Positions 47,899 through 59,047 of a stretch of DNA of 64,000 bases are shown here, in pieces. Origin of the DNA: Armatimonadota bacterium (GTDB taxonomy: Bacteria; Armatimonadota; SYMT01); contig JAWLHY010000008.1 in assembly GCA_041690135.1 (NCBI GenBank), forward strand, positions 32,001 through 96,000, given 5' to 3'. Position 1 is the first letter of the stretch. Every line of letters begins with the position of its first letter. A program made the position numbers and the translations under genes. The notes below the pieces were generated by a model, which saw nothing but the letters and a program-made list of their open reading frames with translations, was not told the origin of the DNA and ran no database searches.

Positions 47899-50466
47899 TC
47901 AGGGGCGGAGACCGATCTGGCGAGTGATGGACGGGTCTTTGATCCTGGTGTCTTCGGCGAGCATGAAGGCCTTGCTGAGGATCACTGAGAGGGTCCGGTC
48001 CCCTTCGAAGGGAAGGAAGACCTCCTCGCGGGCTTTCTCGCCCCGGTCGGGAACGATGCAGAGGTACTGATCGTTCGGCTCCATCAGGATGTTGCTGCTG
48101 CCCAGGTGGATCTTGTACGTCCGCAGCGTGCCCTTAACCCGGAGAAACTTACCGTCCACCGAACACCGGTCGCGGATCTTCAGGCGGGGCAGCAGTCGCT
48201 GCAGCAACTGCTTGCGGGTCTCCGCGGAATTGGAGAGGTCCCCGAACGAGTAGCTGTGCCAGTAGTCCTGGAATTGCTGCGTCCCGCGATCCATCCAGGC
48301 GGGATCGTTGCCGACGCTGGCCACGCCCACGAACAGGTCCACGTCCCGCATGACTTCCGTGAAAGCTAGCGCGGGAACGTCGGTGAGCGGAACCACCGTC
48401 TCTCCACGCATGAAGCGCACCTGGTCCGTGCTCACGTAGAGGCAGATGCCGGTTTCCGACATGCCGTTCACGCCGTCGCCGATCGGATCCACCCAGAACT
48501 CAGCGCGGAGGTCCCACTCCGGCACGACCCGAACGGCAATCGGGACCTCGCCGCTATCGAAGCCGCCCTGGATCCGATAAGTCCACCCGCGCTGGTCGCA
48601 AAGGGCCTTGAACTGGTGCTGCTTCAAGACATGCGCCGCGAAGCGGTTCGAGTAAATGTGGGTAGCCAGCTCTGCGTCCGTGAGGAGGTAAATCTCACGG
48701 TGCGCCTGTTTGAATGGCTGGGTGACGGCATTCTCCTCCAGCCAGGTGCGCCATTGCAGCACGGTCTCGGGATCGAACCCCACCGGGTGCCAGAGCCGGA
48801 CCCGGGTAGACTCTTGCAGCCAGCCGAGGGGTTGGCCCTGCACGTCCACCGGCGTCCCACCGTGTGGGATCGCCAGGGCGGTCCGCTCTCCCTCTCGGAA
48901 ATGCCAGATCAGCCTTCGCGTAAGGGGCGCGAGGAGCGGATGCTCCAGGTAGCGCTCTCTCCAGTCGGCCAGGGTCCACTCGCGCTCGGTGATGAGCAGG
49001 CGCTCCACACGGTCCCGCTGTGCGGGGAGCAGCTTCTGGATCTCCTTCAGAGTCTGCTGGAGGGCCTTCAGTTCCTCGGCGTGGCCGCGCTTCACTTCCG
49101 CAGGGACCGCCTTCTGCGGCTTTCCTTCCTGCGTAAACCAGGTGAGCCGCACGTCTCGCGTGCCGTCCAGGCGGACTTCCGCGACGCACTCTCCAATCTG
49201 AGAGCGGTAACTACCCGAAATCTCCAGTCCGAAGGTGGGAACCGCCATCTCTTCCAGATCGGTGGGCGTCAGGCCGGCGCGGACCGCGGCGGCTTCCAAG
49301 GCCTTTTCGATCTGCTTCAGGGCGCTCGGGTTCTCGACGCGTGATTTGAGGCGGCTCAACTGCGCGGCGGCCTCGGTGCGGGGTGAGAGGCTCAGGGCGT
49401 GCACCGCCCCATTCCCGACTTTCGGACAGCGCGGGCCGTGCCAGGTCACCTTTCGATAACAGGTCTCGGCGAGGTCGCCCAGGAGATGCGGAAGTGGGGA
49501 AGCATCGACCGGCGCGCAGCACCACGCTAACCCTTTGAGAAGGTCCGCGTTGCCGTCGGCCAGGATCAGGTCCGGGTCCGGCACCCATTCGCTCTCACGC
49601 TCGCGATGGTCCGTGCGGCGCTCCACCACGAGAGGAAGCCAGTGCTGCATCCGCTGTACGAAGAGTTCCGTACCCAGACTCTCCACCCGGCTGGCGGCCT
49701 CTTTCAGCCATTTCGCGGACGGCTTGGAGCTGTCCGCGGTGCGAGCATGGGAGAGCAACGCCTCCCAGGCAGCGCGCTCCACCGGCGGGGCAGTGGAGAG
49801 GTCTTGCCGGAGCGCGTCGGCCCACGGTTCCCCTGGTTCCGGTAACAAAGAGCCGTGGTTACCCCGGAGCGCATCGATCCGCGCCACCAGTTTCCGGATT
49901 TCGGCATCGTCCTGCCTGGCCTCCGGGGCCGGACGAATCCTCCCGAGTTGCTCCGTCGCACCCTCCGGTAGACCGGACTCTGAAGCGATCCGCTCGACGA
50001 GCGTGATCAGGCGGGCCATCGGAAAGTCCACCGGAAAGAGCAGCCGCGGGTTAGGGGCTCGGAACGCCTCGGTAATGCGCGCAGTCCGCTCCAGGATGAG
50101 CGAAAGTGCCGCCCAGTCGACGGGCAGCTTGCGGGCGAGGAGGCGGTCCAGTACCTGCAAGGTAGTCCGTTGTGCGCGGAATCCCCAGTGCTGCGCTTCT
50201 CCGCTCCGGGGCACCTTCACCACGAGGGCCCGCTCCAACGCGGCATGGACCACGCCGAGTTGCTGCTCCGGCTCCATCTCGAGAATCGCCTGGCCGGCAG
50301 GGAGATCACCCAGCGCGGGAATGCGAGAGTAGACGCCGACGCCGGACGCACTCGCTTCCAGAAAGGCTTCGAGGGCGCGGGCGGCCTCAACAGGCGCCGG
50401 CTCCAGGTCGCTGGCCGGCGGCGTGCCGGCCGGCAGCAGGTTACGGACAAAGCCCAGGATGTCCAT
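47899..50466 (-). CDS. DUF4132 domain protein
   Basis: HPLL..RRLIW, VRLWHP, QPFKQAHRE.Y, YSNRFAAH, FTEVMRDVDLFV, HLGS.NILMEPNDQYLCIVP and LSKAFML motifs. Confidence 0.88.
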   Translation of the reverse strand: MDILGFVRNLLPAGTPPASDLEPAPVEAARALEAFLEASASGVGVYSRIPALGDLPAGQAILEMEPEQQLGVVHAALERALVVKVPRSGEAQHWGFRAQRTTLQVLDRLLARKLPVDWAALSLILERTARITEAFRAPNPRLLFPVDFPMARLITLVERIASESGLPEGATEQLGRIRPAPEARQDDAEIRKLVARIDALRGNHGSLLPEPGEPWADALRQDLSTAPPVERAAWEALLSHARTADSSKPSAKWLKEAASRVESLGTELFVQRMQHWLPLVVERRTDHRERESEWVPDPDLILADGNADLLKGLAWCCAPVDASPLPHLLGDLAETCYRKVTWHGPRCPKVGNGAVHALSLSPRTEAAAQLSRLKSRVENPSALKQIEKALEAAAVRAGLTPTDLEEMAVPTFGLEISGSYRSQIGECVAEVRLDGTRDVRLTWFTQEGKPQKAVPAEVKRGHAEELKALQQTLKEIQKLLPAQRDRVERLLITEREWTLADWRERYLEHPLLAPLTRRLIWHFREGERTALAIPHGGTPVDVQGQPLGWLQESTRVRLWHPVGFDPETVLQWRTWLEENAVTQPFKQAHREIYLLTDAELATHIYSNRFAAHVLKQHQFKALCDQRGWTYRIQGGFDSGEVPIAVRVVPEWDLRAEFWVDPIGDGVNGMSETGICLYVSTDQVRFMRGETVVPLTDVPALAFTEVMRDVDLFVGVASVGNDPAWMDRGTQQFQDYWHSYSFGDLSNSAETRKQLLQRLLPRLKIRDRCSVDGKFLRVKGTLRTYKIHLGSSNILMEPNDQYLCIVPDRGEKAREEVFLPFEGDRTLSVILSKAFMLAEDTRIKDPSITRQIGLRP

Positions 50467-50474
50467 GGATGCGG

Positions 50475-50867
50475 TTACCCTCCCACCAGGGGCACCAGGC
50501 GCACGAAGCTGACGGTCGTGTCGAGACGGATCTCGATCTCTTCGTCCAGGCTCTCCACCTGACGGTCGTCCACCAGGATGAAGAAACCGTTGCGCTCGAA
50601 GGCCTCGATAGCGCGGGTGTACTGTTGCTCCCAGTCGATCTTCCGCCGCTGGCGCAGCTTGTAACCGTTCAGCACCCGTTCCGCGTCGGTGGGCTGAACG
50701 AGGCCGCGGAAGTGCTCCGGCTCCTTGAGGTTAAATTCCTGGACTTCCTCGTACACCCGCTTGCGAATCAGCTCCCGGGTGGTGATCCGCTGGGTCAGGA
50801 AAACGAGCGTGAGGCGGCCCGTGCGCTCCCCGGCCGCGGTTTCGTCGAAGATCGTCAGTACCGGCAT
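50475..50867 (-). CDS. hypothetical protein with ubiquitin-like C-terminal ...VSFVRLVPLVGG
   Basis: 130 aa with GGGAG RBS; ends in GG-stop 8 nt before the DUF4132 ATG. Confidence 0.85.
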   Translation of the reverse strand: MPVLTIFDETAAGERTGRLTLVFLTQRITTRELIRKRVYEEVQEFNLKEPEHFRGLVQPTDAERVLNGYKLRQRRKIDWEQQYTRAIEAFERNGFFILVDDRQVESLDEEIEIRLDTTVSFVRLVPLVGG

Positions 50868-51217
50868 GGTTTGCTCCCTTTATGTTCCGTGGGAGTTCTC
50901 GAGAACTCTTTGTATCGAACATCGGGCTCGTCGTGCCGGCTTCCAGCCGGCGAGGGGCTGACCTGGACCGTCGATCACATTTTACGGCGATGTTCGTGTC
51001 CCCGTCGAAGGTCACGTCCTCCAGCAAGGTGTCGTCCTCCACGAGGAGGTCGGCCAGGAAGTAGCACCGTCCATTGCGGAAATTCTACCGGCGGAATACC
51101 GCCTCCGCCTCCATCCGATCAGCGGGCAAGCGAGGGTCTTGAGAGCGTTCGATGGGCCGCAGTCGGCGGCGAACTTGGGCGAACCACTTGCTGAGTGTCA
51201 TAACGACTCGACAGAAC

Positions 51218-52513
51218 TCAACGCGGCAATTCCAGATGGAATTCGGCGCCATGGGGATGGTGGGGTGTGAAGGAGACTCTGCCACCGTGGATTTGTTCCA
51301 CCACTCTGCGCACCAGCAGTAGGCCCAGGCCGCTTCCCGTCTCCTTGGTCGTAAAGGGTTCCTGGAAGAGCAGGCGGCACTTCTCGGCGGGAATGCCCGG
51401 GCCCTCGTCCCATACCGTGATCTTCACGGCACCGTCTTGAACGTGGACGCGGACCCCCATCTTTCCCCGTTCTTCCACGGCATCGAGGCTGTTTCGTAGC
51501 AGGTTCAACAGCGCCTGTCGTAGTAGCCGCGGATGCCCTTGCAAGGGAGGGAGCTGTTCCCAGTCCCCATCCAGTTCGACGATGCAGGGATGGGAAACGC
51601 CCAGGGAAATCACCAGGTTCCGCAGCAGGACCGGGAGCTTGATCTCCTCCGGCTGCCGGTTATCGGCCCCACCCAGGATTCGCAGGTCCTCAATGAGCCG
51701 GAGCATCTGCTCTACCTGGCGCTGACAACGCTCCACCACGCGCGTGGGGGTTTCCTCCTGCACCATTTTCCGCAGCAGGTCGAGGGAGGTGGTGAGGGTC
51801 CAGAGGGGCGTGACCAGTTCGTGTGCCGTGAACGAAGACAACCGCGCCAAGGTGGTTAACGCCGCCGAAACCTCGGTTCGCTGCCGGGTGGCGAATTCCT
51901 GGGAAATCACCTCCGCAAGGTGTGGGGAGAGGAGCAGCCGGTCCGGGGCGCCGTCCTGGAGACTGGTGCTGATGTCGACCGCCCCCACGATGTTCCCCAC
52001 GCTGTTCCGGATGGGTGACCCGAAGCAGGCGAAGTCATGAAAGGGGGCGAGGTAATGCTCGGAGCCTATTACGGCCACCGGCCGCCCGGCCGCCAATGCC
52101 GTGCCGGCTCCGTTCGTCCCCATAACAGGTTCGGACCAATCGTAGCCGGGGATGAGCCCAAACACCTGCATGGCGGCCGTGTCCGAGCCGGTAGAGGAGA
52201 GGATAATTCCCTCGCAATCGGTGATGTAGACGACGTGAGGAATCTGGGAGAGGATCAGGGAAGCCCATGCCAGGTGCGGTGTAGCGATCTCCAGCAGGTT
52301 GCGGTTGTCCGCGATCCGGCGCTCCAACTCCCCATCATCGATTCGCTTCAACTCAACCTTGGCAGCTTGGGGATCCAGACCCGCGTCTCGACTCCGCTCC
52401 CAGGAATGCAGGATCACGTCCTTGAGGGGCGCCTGATGATTCGAAGTTGCCAGGAACTCCTCCCACTGGCGGTATGTTGAGTTCACCGGGCGTATCCTTC
52501 CGTCGCCGGGCAA
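51218..52513 (-). CDS. GAF (AcoR-type) sensor histidine kinase
   Basis: SWERS, WSE..MGTNGAGTAL, GAVDIS; AHELVTPL H-box, NLLRNS, DEGPGI, FTTK and GSGLGL. Confidence 0.88.
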   Translation of the reverse strand: MPGDGRIRPVNSTYRQWEEFLATSNHQAPLKDVILHSWERSRDAGLDPQAAKVELKRIDDGELERRIADNRNLLEIATPHLAWASLILSQIPHVVYITDCEGIILSSTGSDTAAMQVFGLIPGYDWSEPVMGTNGAGTALAAGRPVAVIGSEHYLAPFHDFACFGSPIRNSVGNIVGAVDISTSLQDGAPDRLLLSPHLAEVISQEFATRQRTEVSAALTTLARLSSFTAHELVTPLWTLTTSLDLLRKMVQEETPTRVVERCQRQVEQMLRLIEDLRILGGADNRQPEEIKLPVLLRNLVISLGVSHPCIVELDGDWEQLPPLQGHPRLLRQALLNLLRNSLDAVEERGKMGVRVHVQDGAVKITVWDEGPGIPAEKCRLLFQEPFTTKETGSGLGLLLVRRVVEQIHGGRVSFTPHHPHGAEFHLELPR

Positions 52514-52635: not shown

Positions 52636-55600
52636 TTAATGGGATCGGTTGGGTAGCAAATGATCCACCTCCTGCCGGAGAAGATGGATTTCCAGGCGGG
52701 TGTCCCAATCGACGTTCACCGGCAGGGTCTGCTCCAAATCACGAACTACGCGTTGGGTCAGGCGCCTGGCCTCATCCACGGCGCCAGTGCGGATCAGGGC
52801 CAGGGCATGAAGAAGGCGGTCCGACAGAGCGTTGGGATCGCTCTGGATCGCGGCGGCCTGCTGCATGGTCCTGACCGCCTCCGTGGGCCGACCTGCCCGC
52901 AGGTACAGGGCTCCCAGGGTATTGAGCCAGTGGTGGTTTCGCGGTTCCTCCTGCAGTAGCTTCTGGAGCATCGCAATCCCACGAGTTAGGACCTCGGGGT
53001 CCGGGGTTCCCAGGGCCAGCGTCCACGCGGTCAGATCCTGCTCGCGGTCGGTTCCGTGGGTTTCGAAGCGCGCCAGCATTGCGCGGCAGGTAGAGCGGTA
53101 ACCGTAAGAATTTCCGGCGCCGAGTTGGGTGAGGGCCAGCCGGTAGTAAGTGAGGTAGGAGTCCCGGTCACCTTGCAGGGTGGCCGCAAAGTCCCGACTC
53201 GCTTCGGCCCAGCGTCCGCACTCTGCCAGGGCAGTCGCGCGGCGGGAGTAGAGGTTCCAATCCTGGGGTTGCGCCCGGATCAACGGTGACAATTGGCGCG
53301 CCGCCTCACGCCAGAGGCCGGCCCGCTCCGCGGCATTCGCCTGTTCCAGGTGCCACGCCAGGTCCGGCCCGGGCGCGCTTCCCGCGGTGGGAGTCCGGGA
53401 TGCCGCGAACTCTCGCCAGTACGCTGCAATGGTGCCGGCCGGAGCCGGCTCAAGCCGGCTGTCCGCTCCGGGGCGCAGTCCGGACAGGAGCACGGCCAGG
53501 CGGGAAAGCTCGGCCGTGCTGCGTCGGTCGGGCCGCAGGGCCAGCACCTGTACCTTGCCGTTGCGGAGAGTAGCCACCACACGGTGCCCGTCCGGAGTAA
53601 ACCGGAGTTCCCCCTCACCTTCCAACGGGGTCGGGAGTGTGACCGGTTCACCGAGATGGGTGTCCCACACCTGCAGCCGGTCGCCGGAGAGCGAAGCCAA
53701 CCAGCGGGAGTCCCGGCTGAATTCCACTCGGGTCACGGCTTCGGCGTGGTGGAGTGGAGAACAGAGCGGGCGACGCGAGCCGATGTCCCAGACCCGCGCC
53801 GTTCCCCCGGCGCCGGCAGTTGCCAGCCGACGTCCGGTCGGGTCCAGCGCCACATGGATCCATGCTTCGCCATCCCACTGGGCGACGGTTTCTTCCTGTC
53901 CGCTCCGCAGATCCAGTCTTTGCGCGTAGCCGTAGAGGTTGCCGACCAGAAAGTGTCCGTTCCCACGGCCGGGAGTGAAACGCGCGATGCCGGACATCGA
54001 GTAGGTGCGAAACCGGGGGTGATCCCAGGCGCCGTTCCATACCAACAGGCGGTCCGCGTCCGCAGCGAAAGCGAGCCGGCCGTTAGGAAGCGAGACCGGG
54101 TGTCCGCGGCTCGGTGACCAGGGCACGCCTAGCGTCAGGAAACGCGCGGTCTCCACGTCGATCACTGCGATGCTGTTTTCGGCGAGGCTAGCGAGCAGAC
54201 GCCTGCCATCCGTCGCAAACTCCAGATGGCTCACCCGTTTGGGGAGCCGGAGTATCTTCCGGGCCACTCCGCGCTGCGCCTCCCAAATCCATACCCGGTT
54301 ATCCATGGTGGCGGTTGCGGCCAGGCGGCCATCCGCATTCAGGGTCGCCGCCAGGAGAGGCGACGGGTGGTCTATGGCTGGGCCCGCTGTCCTCTCACGC
54401 GCAATGTCCCACAAGCGCGCCGCTCCCTGGGTCAGAGCGATGAATGCGTGATGCGCATCCCGCGTGGCTACGGCGGGAAGGGCCGCCGCGACCGGGCGCA
54501 GCGTGCGGACCGGTGGGGCGGACGCAGTGCAGTCCCAAAGGCGTACCAGCCCACCCAATCCGAAGGTGACGATTCGCCGGCGCGACGGCAAGAGCGCCCC
54601 GTATCTGACCGTGCTATCGAGGAAGTGGGGTTGTCGGATCAGATCTCCCGTGTCCGTATTCCACTGGGCCAGGCGTCCATTTCCTTCCAGCGTCCAGACC
54701 ACGCTTCCGCCGGCGTCCCACTCCACACGGAGTGGCTGTTGTTCCAGGCGAGGGGAGGACGCGATCAGGGCTCCCGTGTCCGCGCGCCGGAAGTGCACCC
54801 GATTTCCGTGGAGCACCGCTATTCGCCGTCCGTCCGGGCTGATGCGGATCGTTGCCAGTGCTTCCGCGCCCCCGAGGTCCGCGAGCAGCCGGCCTTCCGC
54901 GATAGACCAGATCCGAAAGCGATCGCTCGCGGCGCTTACGTGTCGCCCATCCGGGGTGAAAGCGGTGGAGGCGACCCGCGGATAGGGGACCTCCGGGCCT
55001 ACCTGCCGCCCGGTGGAGGCATTCCAAATCCGGTAACGGCTTTGCTCGCCGTCATGGGCCGAGGTAACGATTTGCCGTCCATCCGGGCTGAAACGGGCGT
55101 CATAAACTGGAGCGTTGTGAGGGAAGGCGGGGCCTACCGGGGCGGCGGTATGAAGGTCCCAGAGCTGCGCCTTTTGCTGGATCACCAGGAGGACACGGGT
55201 GCCGTCCGGGCTCACGTCCGTCGCGGCAATTTCCTCACGCCGGCTGATCGGCAGGCCTTGCGCCCGACCGTTGGATAGGTCCCAGCAGCGCACCTCGCGA
55301 TTGGAAGGTTGGGACAGCAGCCATCGACCATTTGGGTTCAACACCATTCGCCTACCGGCGGAGTGCGGGAGCGGTGGCAGTACGTCCCGACCGGTGACCG
55401 CATCAGTGACCCGGATGCGATGGTCGGAGCACTGGGCAATCACACGCTTTCCGTTCGGAGTGATTTCCACGCCCACCACTGTGGAAGGGTGCCGCCATAC
55501 TTGCAGAAGACGCGGAGCCGCGGCCAGCGTGGAAGCGATCCGGAGGCGGTGGCCCAATTCCCGCTCTGGTGCACCCTGATCTTGTCGCAGGGCTTCGACG

Positions 55601-57156
55601 TACCACACCAGCGCTCCGGGTGTGTCGCCGGCACGGGCGCGAGCGGTGCCCCTGTCCACCAGGAGCCGTACGAGGCGATGCCGGGCGGTTTCGCGACCTT
55701 GCGCCGCAGCGCGGCCCAGAGTTCTGGCCTTCTGTTCGCGATCTGCGGCGAGCGCTCGCGCCGCTTCGGCCTGCTCGCGAGCGTGCTCGGCACCGTCGTG
55801 CGCGGCTGTCAAGTCTTCCAACGTCGTGCGAAGCTGACTGAGTGCCCCTTCCTTCTCGGAGAGCGCCATCCGTAGGAGGCCGGCCGTATGGCGAGCCTCA
55901 CGCTCCCCGCGCACCGCGGCGACAGCGAGGACGGCGATCGTTGTGGTCACGATACCCGATAACGTCGCGGCACGGAACAGGCCCCGCCGGAAAGCCGCCT
56001 GTTGCCGGAGCAGCTCGCCGTGCGGCAGGTGGGCCTCGATCCAGCGACGATCGAAGGCGCGCAGATAGATCCGGTTGCGAACCCGGAGGTACCCTCGCTC
56101 GCTGCGCACAATCCCCGCGAGCCGCAGGGTCGACACGAGGGAGCTCACCGTCTCATCCGCAACCCGCTTGCCGCCGAGAATGCGCTGATACAGTTGGAGG
56201 AGGGCCGCGGTGTCCGCATCCCGCCGGAGCAGGCAATTCTGGACAAATGCCAGGTTGTCGTTTCGCTGCTGAGAAAGGGGGGTGAAGAAAATCTCTTGGC
56301 AGGCGCCGTCCACCACTACCCGTAGGCCCCGGTCGAAATGAGTGTTCTTGCCGGCGGAACGGGCAACCGCGGCGCAGAGTAATTGGGTGAGGTAGGGGTG
56401 TCCTCCGGTCCAGTACAAAATGCGTTCCAGCAGGCGCTGGGCCGCTTGAGGAGATTTCCCGGTACGCTGCAGAAGGCCACTGGCCAGGGGGGCCGCTTGT
56501 GCGGCGGTGAAATCGGTGAGCTCAATGCGAGTGCCGATGTTGAACGGGGTATTTCGAGGGTCTCGGATCAGGTCGGAAGGAGCCACCACTCCCAGGAGAC
56601 AGAAGGTTATTTGTGCCACGGACCGGTCGCGGGCCCGACGCGTGTGGAGCTCGCGGATCGCGGCGAACAGCTCATCCGTGGCGAAGGGAAGGGACCGCAC
56701 GGTGTCGATCTCGTCGACGAAGACGACCAGGGTGGGGAAGTCCGGTTCTTGCGAACCGCTCTCTTGCTCCTTACACTTGGCCGCCTGTCGCAGCGCCGCC
56801 AGGAACCGGATCATGGGTCCGAGGGCCTGGTTTTCCCGCCAGAACGCGTCCAGGACCTCGTCGAGGTCCAACTGCTCACCCACCAGGCAGAGCATACTTC
56901 GGTACCATTGTTCCGGAGTGACGCTCTGGCCCAGCGCGGACAGGTCGAGCACGACGATGGCGGCCCCCTCTTGCCGCAGGCGGACCGCCGTGCGCGTCAT
57001 GAGGGAGGACTTGCCCATCTGCCGGGAGGTGAGAACGTAGGAAAACTCTCCCCGGCGGAGCGCCTGGTAGAGTTGACCGTCGGCCTCCCGCTCTACGTAG
57101 CAGGTGGCGTCCGGTGGCAGCGTGCCTCCGACGATGTAGAAATCACCCTTCGGCAT
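52636..57156 (-). CDS. AAA_35 (STAND-like) NTPase - hydrophobic helix/coiled coil - WD40 repeats - TPR protein
   Basis: SRQMGKSS Walker A, FVDEID Walker B, TPFNIG, WTGGHPYLTQ, VRNRIY; many FSPDG/WD repeats; TPR-like tail. Confidence 0.88.
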   Translation of the reverse strand: MPKGDFYIVGGTLPPDATCYVEREADGQLYQALRRGEFSYVLTSRQMGKSSLMTRTAVRLRQEGAAIVVLDLSALGQSVTPEQWYRSMLCLVGEQLDLDEVLDAFWRENQALGPMIRFLAALRQAAKCKEQESGSQEPDFPTLVVFVDEIDTVRSLPFATDELFAAIRELHTRRARDRSVAQITFCLLGVVAPSDLIRDPRNTPFNIGTRIELTDFTAAQAAPLASGLLQRTGKSPQAAQRLLERILYWTGGHPYLTQLLCAAVARSAGKNTHFDRGLRVVVDGACQEIFFTPLSQQRNDNLAFVQNCLLRRDADTAALLQLYQRILGGKRVADETVSSLVSTLRLAGIVRSERGYLRVRNRIYLRAFDRRWIEAHLPHGELLRQQAAFRRGLFRAATLSGIVTTTIAVLAVAAVRGEREARHTAGLLRMALSEKEGALSQLRTTLEDLTAAHDGAEHAREQAEAARALAADREQKARTLGRAAAQGRETARHRLVRLLVDRGTARARAGDTPGALVWYVEALRQDQGAPERELGHRLRIASTLAAAPRLLQVWRHPSTVVGVEITPNGKRVIAQCSDHRIRVTDAVTGRDVLPPLPHSAGRRMVLNPNGRWLLSQPSNREVRCWDLSNGRAQGLPISRREEIAATDVSPDGTRVLLVIQQKAQLWDLHTAAPVGPAFPHNAPVYDARFSPDGRQIVTSAHDGEQSRYRIWNASTGRQVGPEVPYPRVASTAFTPDGRHVSAASDRFRIWSIAEGRLLADLGGAEALATIRISPDGRRIAVLHGNRVHFRRADTGALIASSPRLEQQPLRVEWDAGGSVVWTLEGNGRLAQWNTDTGDLIRQPHFLDSTVRYGALLPSRRRIVTFGLGGLVRLWDCTASAPPVRTLRPVAAALPAVATRDAHHAFIALTQGAARLWDIARERTAGPAIDHPSPLLAATLNADGRLAATATMDNRVWIWEAQRGVARKILRLPKRVSHLEFATDGRRLLASLAENSIAVIDVETARFLTLGVPWSPSRGHPVSLPNGRLAFAADADRLLVWNGAWDHPRFRTYSMSGIARFTPGRGNGHFLVGNLYGYAQRLDLRSGQEETVAQWDGEAWIHVALDPTGRRLATAGAGGTARVWDIGSRRPLCSPLHHAEAVTRVEFSRDSRWLASLSGDRLQVWDTHLGEPVTLPTPLEGEGELRFTPDGHRVVATLRNGKVQVLALRPDRRSTAELSRLAVLLSGLRPGADSRLEPAPAGTIAAYWREFAASRTPTAGSAPGPDLAWHLEQANAAERAGLWREAARQLSPLIRAQPQDWNLYSRRATALAECGRWAEASRDFAATLQGDRDSYLTYYRLALTQLGAGNSYGYRSTCRAMLARFETHGTDREQDLTAWTLALGTPDPEVLTRGIAMLQKLLQEEPRNHHWLNTLGALYLRAGRPTEAVRTMQQAAAIQSDPNALSDRLLHALALIRTGAVDEARRLTQRVVRDLEQTLPVNVDWDTRLEIHLLRQEVDHLLPNRSH

Positions 57157-57184
57157 AATGGGCGTTGGCGGACCTCGCCCGCCT

Positions 57185-59047
57185 TCAACTCCGGAACTGG
57201 CGCTCGAGATACTCTCGGTAGAGTTCGCAGCGGAACCGCGCGGTGGCGGCTGCCCCTCCCGTGAGTATTCCCGCGCTGCGCAGCCGGAAGAACTCCTCAT
57301 CAGAGGTACAGGCTCGGCCCGCCAACACTTCTTTGACCTGATCGCACAGGTCCGCATCCCGCAGCAACGCAAGAAGGAGGCGCCGCAGGTGATCCTTGTA
57401 GGGGCCGCCTCCTTGACGGACAGCCTCTCGGAAGCTCGCCAACGACTGATTGCCGCGGCTTAGTTCCCGCAGACCTCTCCGGACCAGGTAGGGGTGCCCT
57501 CCCGCCAGACGACGGAAGTCTTCCAACTCCTGCCCGGACAGCGGACTGCCGTGAAGTTGATTCAACCTTTCTACCTGGTCCGGAGTAAAGTCCTCCAACT
57601 CCAACCGGGTGCCCACGTTAAAAGGGGACTGGTTGAGGTCCGCCACGAAGAGATGGGCCTCCGTGGCATAGGCCATCACCAGAGAGAGCCGGTTCCAGGG
57701 GCTGGCGGGATCCAGCGCCCGTTCGTTGTGCCAAGAGCGGAACAGCGAGAAGACCTCCACGCCGAAAGGGCAGGGGAACAGGCGATCCACCTCGTCGAAA
57801 GCCCAGAGCAGGCGACCCTGTATCCGAGGAAACACCGTGGACCGCAGGTACCGACGGAGGTTGAGGCTGGGGCTGAGTTCTGGGAGCCACTGGGCACGAG
57901 GCAATTCGAGTAACTCCGCCAGACACTCCGCCAGCGCACGCAGGAGCGTCTCCGTGGATTCAAAGGCGGTGGCATCGAGCGACTGAAAGTCGGTGAGGGC
58001 CACCACGCTACCCTGACGCCGGGCGTGCTGCAGGCCACGCGCCAACAGCGATGACTTCCCGCACTGGCGGGGGCCGGTCAGCAGGACGATGCTTTCTCCG
58101 CTATCCAGGAGCGAGCAAAGCTCGCCATCGGCGGGGCGCTCCACGTAAAGCCGCGATTGCAGAGGTACGGCGCCCCCGACCGATTCCAGGCAGAGTTCCA
58201 CATGTGCGGGGTGCGCCCGCGGCGGCTCCGCAGCGGCCGCGGGCGGCGCACCGGGGGAAAGCCAGGTCGTCCCGGAGCGGGCTAGAGAGCGTGCAAACGC
58301 CTGGAGGTCGGGTCCCGGCTGCGTGTCCAACTCGCGCTTGAGCAGACGTTCCAACTCTCGGTACTGCTCCAGTGCGGCCGCGCTCTGACCCGTGGCGGCG
58401 TAAAGCCGCAACAGGCGCAGGCAGGTCTCCTCGCAAAGGGGATTGGAGCGGACACCCCGCGCCGCCAACTCGCGCGCCGCTGCCAGTTGGCCACGCTGTT
58501 CGTAGAGATCGATGAGAGCCCGGAGGCTGTCCTGATAGCGGACCTCCAGCCGGGTCTGCTCGTTGAAGATCCAATCTTCGGCGAGGCCGGCAAGTAGCTC
58601 GCCCCCGTAGAGTTCCACAGCACGAGCCAGGGCCGAGATCCGCTCCGACACCGCGCCCGCGGCCTCGGCGGTCCGGAGAAGCGCCTCGAACGACTCCAGG
58701 TCCGTGGTTACCTGCGCGGGGTCCACCATCACCGTCAGGCGATCGGCGCGAAACCAGGCATCCGGCGGCACCGGCAGAGAGGCCAGGTCCTGGCGCAGGG
58801 ACCAGAGTGCGGTACTCAGGCTGCTCCGCGCGGCCGAGAGACGGTCGTGGGGCCAGAGGAGCTCAATGAGGTGGTCGCGGCGCTGCGGATAGGGAAGGCG
58901 ATAGGCGAGATAGGCCAGGAGCGCGGTTGACTTCTGCGTGCGGAACCGGGAGACAACCTCTCCCCCCGCTTCCACGCGAAGCCCCCCGAACAGGCTGATC
59001 CGCACCGGAGTCCTGCTGCCTACACCGTCTTGTCCACTCACCGCCAA
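57185..59047 (-). CDS. SARP-family (OmpR-like HTH + BTAD) regulator fused to an AAA_35 NTPase
   Basis: ALLAYLA, LLWP, AVELYGGELL, PLCEE..LLRLY..G..AAL.QY; GGAVPL..YVER, PRQCGKSS, FDEVD, SPFNVG and GGHPYL. Confidence 0.9.
   Translation of the reverse strand: MAVSGQDGVGSRTPVRISLFGGLRVEAGGEVVSRFRTQKSTALLAYLAYRLPYPQRRDHLIELLWPHDRLSAARSSLSTALWSLRQDLASLPVPPDAWFRADRLTVMVDPAQVTTDLESFEALLRTAEAAGAVSERISALARAVELYGGELLAGLAEDWIFNEQTRLEVRYQDSLRALIDLYEQRGQLAAARELAARGVRSNPLCEETCLRLLRLYAATGQSAAALEQYRELERLLKRELDTQPGPDLQAFARSLARSGTTWLSPGAPPAAAAEPPRAHPAHVELCLESVGGAVPLQSRLYVERPADGELCSLLDSGESIVLLTGPRQCGKSSLLARGLQHARRQGSVVALTDFQSLDATAFESTETLLRALAECLAELLELPRAQWLPELSPSLNLRRYLRSTVFPRIQGRLLWAFDEVDRLFPCPFGVEVFSLFRSWHNERALDPASPWNRLSLVMAYATEAHLFVADLNQSPFNVGTRLELEDFTPDQVERLNQLHGSPLSGQELEDFRRLAGGHPYLVRRGLRELSRGNQSLASFREAVRQGGGPYKDHLRRLLLALLRDADLCDQVKEVLAGRACTSDEEFFRLRSAGILTGGAAATARFRCELYREYLERQFRS

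Follow-up and report, generated by a model that had tools for sequence, protein, structure and literature searches.

A 64,000-nt stretch of the genome of an Armatimonadota bacterium (assembly GCA_041690135.1, contig JAWLHY010000008.1, positions 32,001 to 96,000; hereafter the window) contains two adjacent genes, which encode a 130-aa protein ending in Gly-Gly and an 855-aa protein with the domains DUF4132 and DUF7737. Comparative and structural analyses suggest that the small protein is a ubiquitin-like protein (Ubl), and that an invariant cysteine of DUF7737 may be its carrier. The pair might be a minimal, self-standing Ubl and cysteine-carrier module of two genes, a reading whose chemistry is proposed and whose chances are considered about even. 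It is based on the conserved Gly-Gly tail, the pairing of the two genes across phyla, the co-occurrence of the cysteine with the Ubl gene, and a counterpart in Deinococcus radiodurans.

Organization of the gene pair

Both genes are on the minus strand, and the small-protein gene comes first. The features are listed below, with positions counted from the first letter of the window.

50475-50867, minus strand: gene for the 130-aa small protein, from the list of open reading frames (ORFs); no Pfam family
50478-50483, minus strand: the two terminal Gly codons, G129 and G130, from the sequence; the stop codon is next, at 50475-50477
50467-50474, minus strand: 8-nt intergenic spacer, from the sequence
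47899-50466, minus strand: gene for the 855-aa DUF4132-DUF7737 protein, from the ORF list and Pfam
49246-50466, minus strand: N-terminal all-helical repeat region, residues 1-407, from the AlphaFold2 (AF2) secondary structure and Foldseek
48583-49125, minus strand: DUF4132 domain, residues 448-628, from Pfam and invariant columns
47914-48225, minus strand: DUF7737 end-domain, residues 748-851, from Pfam and the AF2 secondary structure
48058-48108, minus strand: H787-x4-N792-x10-C803 motif (HLGSSNILMEPNDQYLC), residues 787-803, from the translation

The small protein ends in FFILVDDRQVESLDEEIEIRLDTTVSFVRLVPLVGG / VSFVRLVPLVGG, directly followed by the stop codon, and its flexible tail is LVPLVGG. 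An initial annotation of this DNA had described a GG-stop terminus with the DUF4132 gene 8 nt further on, and HLGS and QYLC motifs in the large protein; the ORF coordinates confirm the former, and the two motifs are real, as seen in the translation of 48058-48108. A Shine-Dalgarno-like AAGGGAG precedes the small gene. The two genes are likely to be translationally coupled, because a GGGAGGG run resembling a ribosome-binding site overlaps both Gly codons and lies directly before the ATG of the large gene.

The small protein and its Gly-Gly tail

The small protein has no Pfam match at E ≤ 0.01, the ThiS/MoaD and ubiquitin models included, no NCBIfam match near the cut-off, and nothing meaningful in sequence or profile searches of the Protein Data Bank (PDB). 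Its relatives are numerous: 5,362 proteins were found at E ≤ 0.001 among 5,384 candidates in a 90%-identity collection, and 1,566 representatives of 50%-identity clusters match it, 801 of them at E ≤ 1e-10. The lengths are tightly grouped at 130-135 aa. G129 and G130 are invariant in the family alignment, and an exact terminal GG is present in 118 of the 120 closest relatives and in 139 of the 150 best 50%-identity representatives; the 11 exceptions in the latter set appear to be truncated or frameshifted at the end. A second, longer type of small protein, also encoded in this genome (see below), has 200 matches, and 115 of the 120 listed end exactly in GG. This conservation is far beyond chance. 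One 969-aa entry (P0216) looked like a fusion of the two proteins; a true fusion was rejected, as it reads as a frameshifted run-through from an upstream DUF4132 gene into the Ubl gene.

The AF2 model of the small protein (30 sequences; predicted local distance difference test, pLDDT, 81.1; predicted template modelling score, pTM, 0.77) has a β-grasp topology. The order is strand 3-9, strand 15-22, helix 30-47, an insert, helix 79-91, and strands 95-99, 110-112 and 118-123. The insert is modelled with less confidence and contains helix 61-68; the tail (127-130) has pLDDT < 50. The helical insert (about residues 48-78, ~30 residues; FRGLVxPTxAExxLNGY) is the most conserved part of the protein. 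Ubiquitin, Ubl and MoaD-type chains predominate in the top 50 matches of the Foldseek search against the PDB, and a few more are other β-grasp proteins (staphylococcal SSL/EapH). The best are chains 5mpo_B and 5mpo_A of human MOCS2A (template modelling (TM) score normalised by target 0.60-0.64, probability 0.99), and ubiquitin is also among the leaders; the top β-grasp matches range from 0.42 to 0.64. The small protein is thereby modelled, with moderate support, as a ubiquitin/MoaD-type β-grasp protein with an insert of ~30 residues. The fold and the conserved GG had both been anticipated by the initial annotation, and the AF2 topology, the MOCS2A and ubiquitin matches, and the GG counts agree with it.

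Pairing of the Ubl with DUF4132-DUF7737 proteins

A scan with one genome per species gave 134 relatives of the small protein, and 80 loci were kept. They span the Armatimonadota, Verrucomicrobiota, Planctomycetota, Gemmatimonadota, Actinomycetota, Cyanobacteria, Bacteroidota, Chloroflexota, Acidobacteriota and Pseudomonadota. DUF4132 homologs were located in these loci by tblastn with the 855-aa protein. In 71 of the 80 loci, one is found on the same strand and ≤ 1.5 kb downstream of the small gene, and the ORF maps show a gap of 0-40 nt or an overlap in most of the 80. Among 201 genomes sampled from the phylum of the window, the small gene has a patchy spread (22 of the 201, and 1 of 4 other genomes of the same family); DUF7737 is found in 38, which include all 22. 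In this sample, a DUF7737 match accompanies 26 of the 27 small-gene matches on the same strand of the same contig, no more than ~5.3 kb away; the exception is at a contig end. The linkage to DUF4132 is conserved across phyla. All-versus-all clustering of every ORF in the 80 loci found no third conserved gene, and the largest neighbour cluster beyond the pair genes and shadow frames covers 7 of the 80 loci.

The genome of the window holds six DUF4132 matches. A second, divergent pair is on contig C1 (1014124-1019531), where the gene for a 142-aa protein ending in LAGG (1014124-1014552) is followed 2 nt on by the gene for a 1,658-aa DUF4132-DUF7737 protein. The small proteins of this long form and of the short form in the window are only distantly related, with the short-form profile matching the long form at E 1.1e-9. 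Two WGR-DUF4132 paralogs of the MolR type (C14:100365-103646 and C10:158847-162113) have neither DUF7737 nor an upstream Ubl gene; therefore the Ubl goes with the DUF7737-bearing proteins, and not with DUF4132 as such. The DUF4132 connection drawn in the initial annotation holds as a conserved pairing, but it is limited to this subclass. A third DUF4132 protein without an N-terminal WGR motif (C14:104331-107042) also has no DUF7737 and no upstream Ubl gene; the two C14 genes are in tandem, with a 188-aa ORF between them.

Several loci show variations of the pair. In several genomes (loci L006, L012, L016, L021 and L079), one Ubl gene is followed by two tandem DUF4132-DUF7737 paralogs, and the second tandem DUF7737 copies examined keep the cysteine described below. 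Locus L051 has DUF4132 partners on both sides of the small gene. At locus L117 (G190:C1:3219678-3220545), an intact 135-aa small gene (E 9e-34) is followed by a 47-aa DUF7737 remnant (model positions 59-103), and the partner gene looks decayed.

The large protein and the cysteine of DUF7737

Pfam recognised DUF4132 (PF13569; residues 448-628, E 1.7e-49, 168.6 bits) and DUF7737 (PF24879; residues 748-851, E 8.7e-44, 148.2 bits) in the 855-aa protein, each with a cut-off of 27. In the AF2 model (36 sequences; pLDDT 83.1, pTM 0.65), the N-terminal half (1-407) is all-helical and ARM/HEAT-like; its sequence is poorly conserved, with a consensus of mostly 'x'. The DUF4132 core is of mixed secondary structure and contains the invariant motifs W559-H560-P561, QPFKQxxRE (583-591) and YSNRFxxH (605-612). 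Ubl-less relatives likewise retain HP, QPFKQ..RE and RFAGH. An α/β linker region connects the core with DUF7737, which consists of a helix (745-761), five short strands (768-802), a disordered loop, and two helices (824-837 and 845-851).

Sequence and profile searches of the PDB returned nothing meaningful for the large protein or DUF7737, the DUF7737 profile having 0 matches. Pfam at E ≤ 10 added no family in sub-regions of the large protein, NCBIfam gave nothing useful for the pair, and the ESM Atlas returned only DUF4132/DUF7737 clusters, or no usable match, for residues 575-855 and 742-855. Complex prediction from the alignments of the large and small proteins gave a median score of 0.29 against a mark of 0.32, which is evidence neither way. 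The DUF4132 region (residues 372-629) matches the phage family phrog_20839, a 947-position model of unknown function, at E 1.7e-20.

H787, N792 and C803 are invariant in all 36 DUF7737 rows from Ubl-linked genes (36/36). The long form of this genome and the D. radiodurans protein have the H, N and C as well. In Ubl-less genomes the Cys is present in none of the 15 domains examined (16 genomes; one not scorable); its place is taken by D, L, V, A, E, P or I, with the His and Asn often altered too. The other conserved columns (G, R, G, Y, L, D, D, Q) are invariant in these Ubl-less domains. A quick maximum-likelihood tree of 37 C-terminal halves requires the Cys state to change three times, and supported branches force at least two of these changes. 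The 13 rows of one deep clade lack the Cys, and there are two nested losses. One nested loss (L100) falls inside the clade of short, Ubl-linked proteins; its genome is 98% complete and does not have the small gene, so that the Cys and the Ubl were both lost. The other (L107) is a second long-form copy. Cys803, in QYLC, is the candidate catalytic or carrier cysteine. The initial annotation had proposed the DUF4132 protein as the enzyme or the target of a Ubl system. Its role as an enzyme or covalent partner gains support because the invariant Cys803 goes with the presence of the Ubl gene; an adenylating (E1-type) activity could not be assigned to it.

Counterpart in Deinococcus radiodurans

The long-form small protein matches a 412-kb D. 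radiodurans replicon in the plasmid collection (tblastn, 43% identity, E 1e-16). In the record NZ_OV024759, a 134-aa 'hypothetical protein' ending in LTALAGG is followed 2 nt on by a 1,626-aa DUF4132 protein, whose end-domain contains HLGSG...FLCIVP. This pair fits the drA0165-drA0166 operon, as judged from the replicon and the DUF4132 annotation, the locus tags of the record being different. It is the same module as in the window, but in the long form, with a 1,626-aa partner in place of the 855-aa protein.

The passages of PMC8533742 that deal with these genes place them in the radiation-desiccation response regulon and call both function-unknown. They describe a radiation-desiccation response motif (RDRM) site at -83 of drA0165 and a strong rise of drA0165-drA0166 on DdrO depletion. 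DRA0166-V5 rises after mitomycin C in the wild type but not in delta-irrE, which makes the induction IrrE-dependent (PMC8533742). The same passages make no mention of a ubiquitin-like protein. Since DNA damage induces the long form of the module in D. radiodurans, a role in the stress response is probable. At this locus (L104, NZ_OV024759 36323-50724), the pair is flanked upstream by two YeeE/YedE genes and TrxC, and downstream by a DUF99 gene and the molybdate transporter gene modA; these sulfur- and molybdenum-related neighbours are not conserved elsewhere.

Comparison with known systems

MoaD, ThiS and CysO are sulfur carriers, and Urm1, SAMP and TtuB are dual-function Ubls. The small protein resembles all of these in being a small β-grasp protein with a flexible Gly-Gly tail and no C-terminal extension. 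It differs from them in several ways: it is ~50 residues longer, owing to the highly conserved helical insert; it has no Pfam match and no linked ThiF/MoeB or sulfur-insertion enzyme; and its invariant partner is a DUF4132-DUF7737 protein.

A Gly-Gly Ubl together with a partner domain bearing a conserved cysteine, possibly a thioester carrier, is also reminiscent of Bil, Bub and the Cap2/Cap3 proteins of the cyclic oligonucleotide-based antiphage signalling system (CBASS). As described in the cited passages, those operons encode a recognisable activating enzyme (E1) and conjugating enzyme (E2), and usually a deubiquitinase (10.1101/2024.11.21.623966, PMC11601596, 10.1101/2023.09.26.559546, PMC10097602). 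The pair in the window has no linked E1, E2 or deubiquitinase and no PADLOC match, and DUF7737 has no detectable E2 similarity; it is not a Bil, Bub or CBASS-Cap2 type operon.

DUF7737 and the ubiquitin-conjugating (E2/UBC) domain share an invariant Cys. The order His, Asn, Cys and the predicted layout of helix, strands and helices are reminiscent of an E2, whose fold consists of a helix, a four-stranded sheet and helices. H787 and N792 precede C803 by 16 and 11 residues, and the motif is HLGSxN, not HPN. The 855-aa protein has the DUF4132 core, with its W-H-P motif, in common with the WGR-DUF4132 proteins of the MolR/YehI type in E. coli; the WGR-type paralogs of this genome differ from it, as described above, in the missing DUF7737 and Ubl gene. 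MolR, WGR and the LexA regulon are mentioned in the passages of PMC8533742.

Search for E1, E2 and JAB genes

The genome was searched for four families: ThiF, Prok-JAB, UQ_con and Prok-E2_B. Four ThiF-family genes above the curated cut-off are present outside the window, with matches on contigs C1, C4 and C2, and there is no ThiF-type E1 match on C8, the contig of the window. One ThiF-family gene, at C1:1044122, is ~25 kb from the second pair. Prok-JAB has no match in the window, the nearest being at C8:350675. Prok-E2_B has no match in the genome; UQ_con has none either, and its control also gave no match. The earlier statement that the window has no E1, E2 or JAB gene is borne out for these four families.

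Proposed mechanism and alternative explanations

From the above we infer the following scheme of activation, thioester formation, transfer to an acceptor and physiological role. The Ubl would be made in its mature form, with a free and flexible Gly-Gly tail. The GG carboxylate might be activated in trans by a ThiF/MoeB-type enzyme of the genome, or by an unrecognised activity of the large protein. In an E2-like step, the Ubl would then form a thioester with Cys803 of DUF7737, from which it would be handed to an acceptor. The variable helical repeats at the N-terminus of the large protein probably bind partners or targets and may select the acceptor. In a more specific form, which is a tentative possibility and is doubted more than believed, DUF7737 would be a new Ubl-carrier (E2-like) cysteine domain, and with DUF4132 it would form a two-protein conjugation machine without dedicated E1, E2, ligase (E3) or JAB components. 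Activation would come from a moonlighting ThiF/MoeB enzyme or a new adenylation activity of DUF4132, and proteins, or the machine itself, would be tagged in a DNA-damage or stress response widespread among free-living bacteria.

Several observations weigh against the carrier module. The support for the β-grasp fold is moderate because no Foldseek match of the small protein in the PDB reaches E ≤ 0.001. Foldseek with the full-length large protein matches only armadillo, importin, ARM/HEAT and designed helical repeats, and is uninformative on the C-terminal half. The E2 likeness of DUF7737 lies in the order of residues and of predicted secondary structure elements; no sequence homology with the UQ_con or Prok-E2 families was detectable. 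When 40 DUF7737 members were scanned with Pfam at E ≤ 10, they gave DUF7737 and noise only, with no E2 family. An hhalign comparison of DUF7737 with two Prok-E2_B sequences placed Cys on Cys, but with a probability of 0.5% it is not significant and was rejected as evidence. The canonical E2 His-to-Cys spacing is ~10 residues, and that of DUF7737 is longer, at 16. No linked E1, E2 or JAB gene was found by the clustering of the 80 loci or among the 8 neighbour ORFs scanned.

The pairing has exceptions as well. The DUF4132 homolog is upstream only in 3 of the 80 loci, is farther downstream in 1, and was not found by tblastn in 5 (L009, L010, L024, L056 and L032, the last with only 523 nt of contig left). 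In the verrucomicrobial loci L009, L010 and L024 the small gene is alone; the genomes of L009 and L010 have no DUF7737, and that of L024 has a sub-threshold match only, in assemblies of uncertain completeness. A Cys-bearing copy (L106) has no adjacent Ubl gene, and a full pair is found elsewhere in its genome. The association of Cys and Ubl is clear in the sequences compared, but comprises few independent events, namely one deep split and one or two nested losses.

The small protein could instead be a sulfur carrier of the ThiS/MoaD/CysO type. A housekeeping MoeB/ThiF enzyme would adenylate the GG and lead to a thiocarboxylate, and Cys803, relaying a persulfide or forming an acyl-disulfide, would provide the sulfur that goes into a cofactor, a thionucleoside or a repair reaction. 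ThiS and MoaD already end in GG as made and have no linked processing protease. The small protein is likewise made ending in GG, with no processing or recycling protease linked to it in the 80-locus neighbourhoods; its best structural matches are MOCS2A/MoaD, and ThiF-family genes are available in trans. The D. radiodurans pair adjoins YeeE/YedE, thioredoxin TrxC and modA, and MolR, a DUF4132 protein of E. coli, was first isolated as a locus of molybdate utilisation, as cited in the passages of PMC8533742. This explanation is nevertheless considered unlikely. No sulfur-insertion or biosynthetic enzyme is conserved beside the pair, and the Deinococcus neighbours do not recur in other genomes; according to the same passages, moeA and moeB are not differentially expressed alongside the operon (PMC8533742). 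Pfam recognised no rhodanese or cysteine desulfurase in the large protein, and its ThiS/MoaD models do not recognise the small one. A role without activation chemistry, comparable to the docking of MoaD into MoaE, should also be considered: the β-grasp protein would be a tightly bound, non-covalent regulatory or chaperone subunit, whose GG tail and insert fit pockets of the partner. The strictly two-gene linkage with probable translational coupling, the absence of a linked E1, and the conservation of the insert rather than of a ubiquitin-like surface are all consistent with such a subunit. To this too we would give a small chance, as a free, invariant Gly-Gly on a flexible tail is a hallmark of chemically activated carriers, and the loss of the Cys, with changed His/Asn, in Ubl-less genomes while the rest of DUF7737 is conserved points to chemistry and not to docking alone.

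The initial annotation had also raised defence or inter-organism conflict. As an anti-phage system, the pair would sense or tag invader components as in Bil, Bub and CBASS-Cap2. The patchy distribution over many phyla, the variable N-terminal repeats, the tandem or extra paralogs in several genomes, and the match of phrog_20839 to the DUF4132 region (E 1.7e-20) would fit this idea, but it found no positive support and is rated very improbable. Three proteins were compared with the PADLOC models without a match, and neither the Ubl nor DUF7737 has relatives in the phage collection or the viral contigs. Of 72,556 plasmid records, only 4 and 7 match, and all of these are non-mobilizable; the flanking genes are metabolic and regulatory, not defence islands; and the sole experimental datum is the DNA-damage induction in Deinococcus.

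Upstream elements and neighbouring genes

One further feature lies upstream of the pair.

50893-50908, no strand assigned: perfect 16-bp palindrome GAGTTCTCGAGAACTC, 26 nt upstream of the ATG of the small gene

The palindrome is unique in the 9.1-Mb genome. It is absent upstream of lexA and recA, and it is not conserved upstream of the small gene in the 79 other loci; it is possible that it acts as a local operator. SOS regulation was considered as a general feature of the module and rejected, given the absence of the palindrome at lexA and recA, its lack of conservation in the other loci and the finding of a GAAC-N4-GTTC box in 1 of 79 upstream regions against 0.37 expected. The sole Cheo-box-like sequence in the 79 regions, GAACTAACGTTC, is 53 nt upstream of the small gene in L035, a metagenome-assembled genome of the Thermomicrobiales. 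Loci L005, L009, L010 and L024 have a common palindrome, ATTTCAG[GA]CTTGAAAT, ~50 nt upstream of the small gene. Three of them are labelled Verrucomicrobiae and L005 Bifidobacteriaceae; in three, the small gene is alone without DUF4132.

Two genes are found upstream of the pair on the same strand. They encode a 431-aa histidine kinase (51218-52513, minus strand) and a 1,578-aa STAND-like protein with an AAA_35 ATPase, WD40 propellers and TPR (52636-57372, minus strand). Neither is conserved beside the pair in other genomes. The 8 neighbour ORFs scanned, which represent the commonest neighbour clusters of the 80 loci, include kinases, regulators (among them a sigma-54 activator), an aminotransferase, a sulfatase, an ABC ATPase and a phosphoglucomutase, and one has no Pfam family. 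In up to 7 loci, however many kilobases of neighbourhood they share, hybrid histidine kinases are found close to the pair (neighbour cluster 7; the representative in L003 was scanned).

Significance

The literature search found no paper describing the module, and DUF7737, DUF5724, PF24879 and PF13569 were not found in the papers searched. Free-GG Ubls are known in bacteria as sulfur carriers with an E1-like partner or, as recently recognised, as parts of E1-E2-deubiquitinase defence operons. Neither pattern describes the present pair, which looks like a Ubl system that lacks a dedicated E1 and has a partner without precedent: the Ubl family is very large and crosses phyla, and its sole constant partner is an uncharacterised protein of 850-1,700 aa whose cysteine domain is gained and lost together with the Ubl. 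The findings provide a testable hypothesis for DUF4132 and DUF7737, and for two genes of unknown function that respond strongly to radiation in Deinococcus. If the cysteine does carry the Ubl, the pair would represent a new minimal route to Ubl transfer, with a bearing on the evolution of ubiquitin-type signalling out of the chemistry of sulfur carriers.

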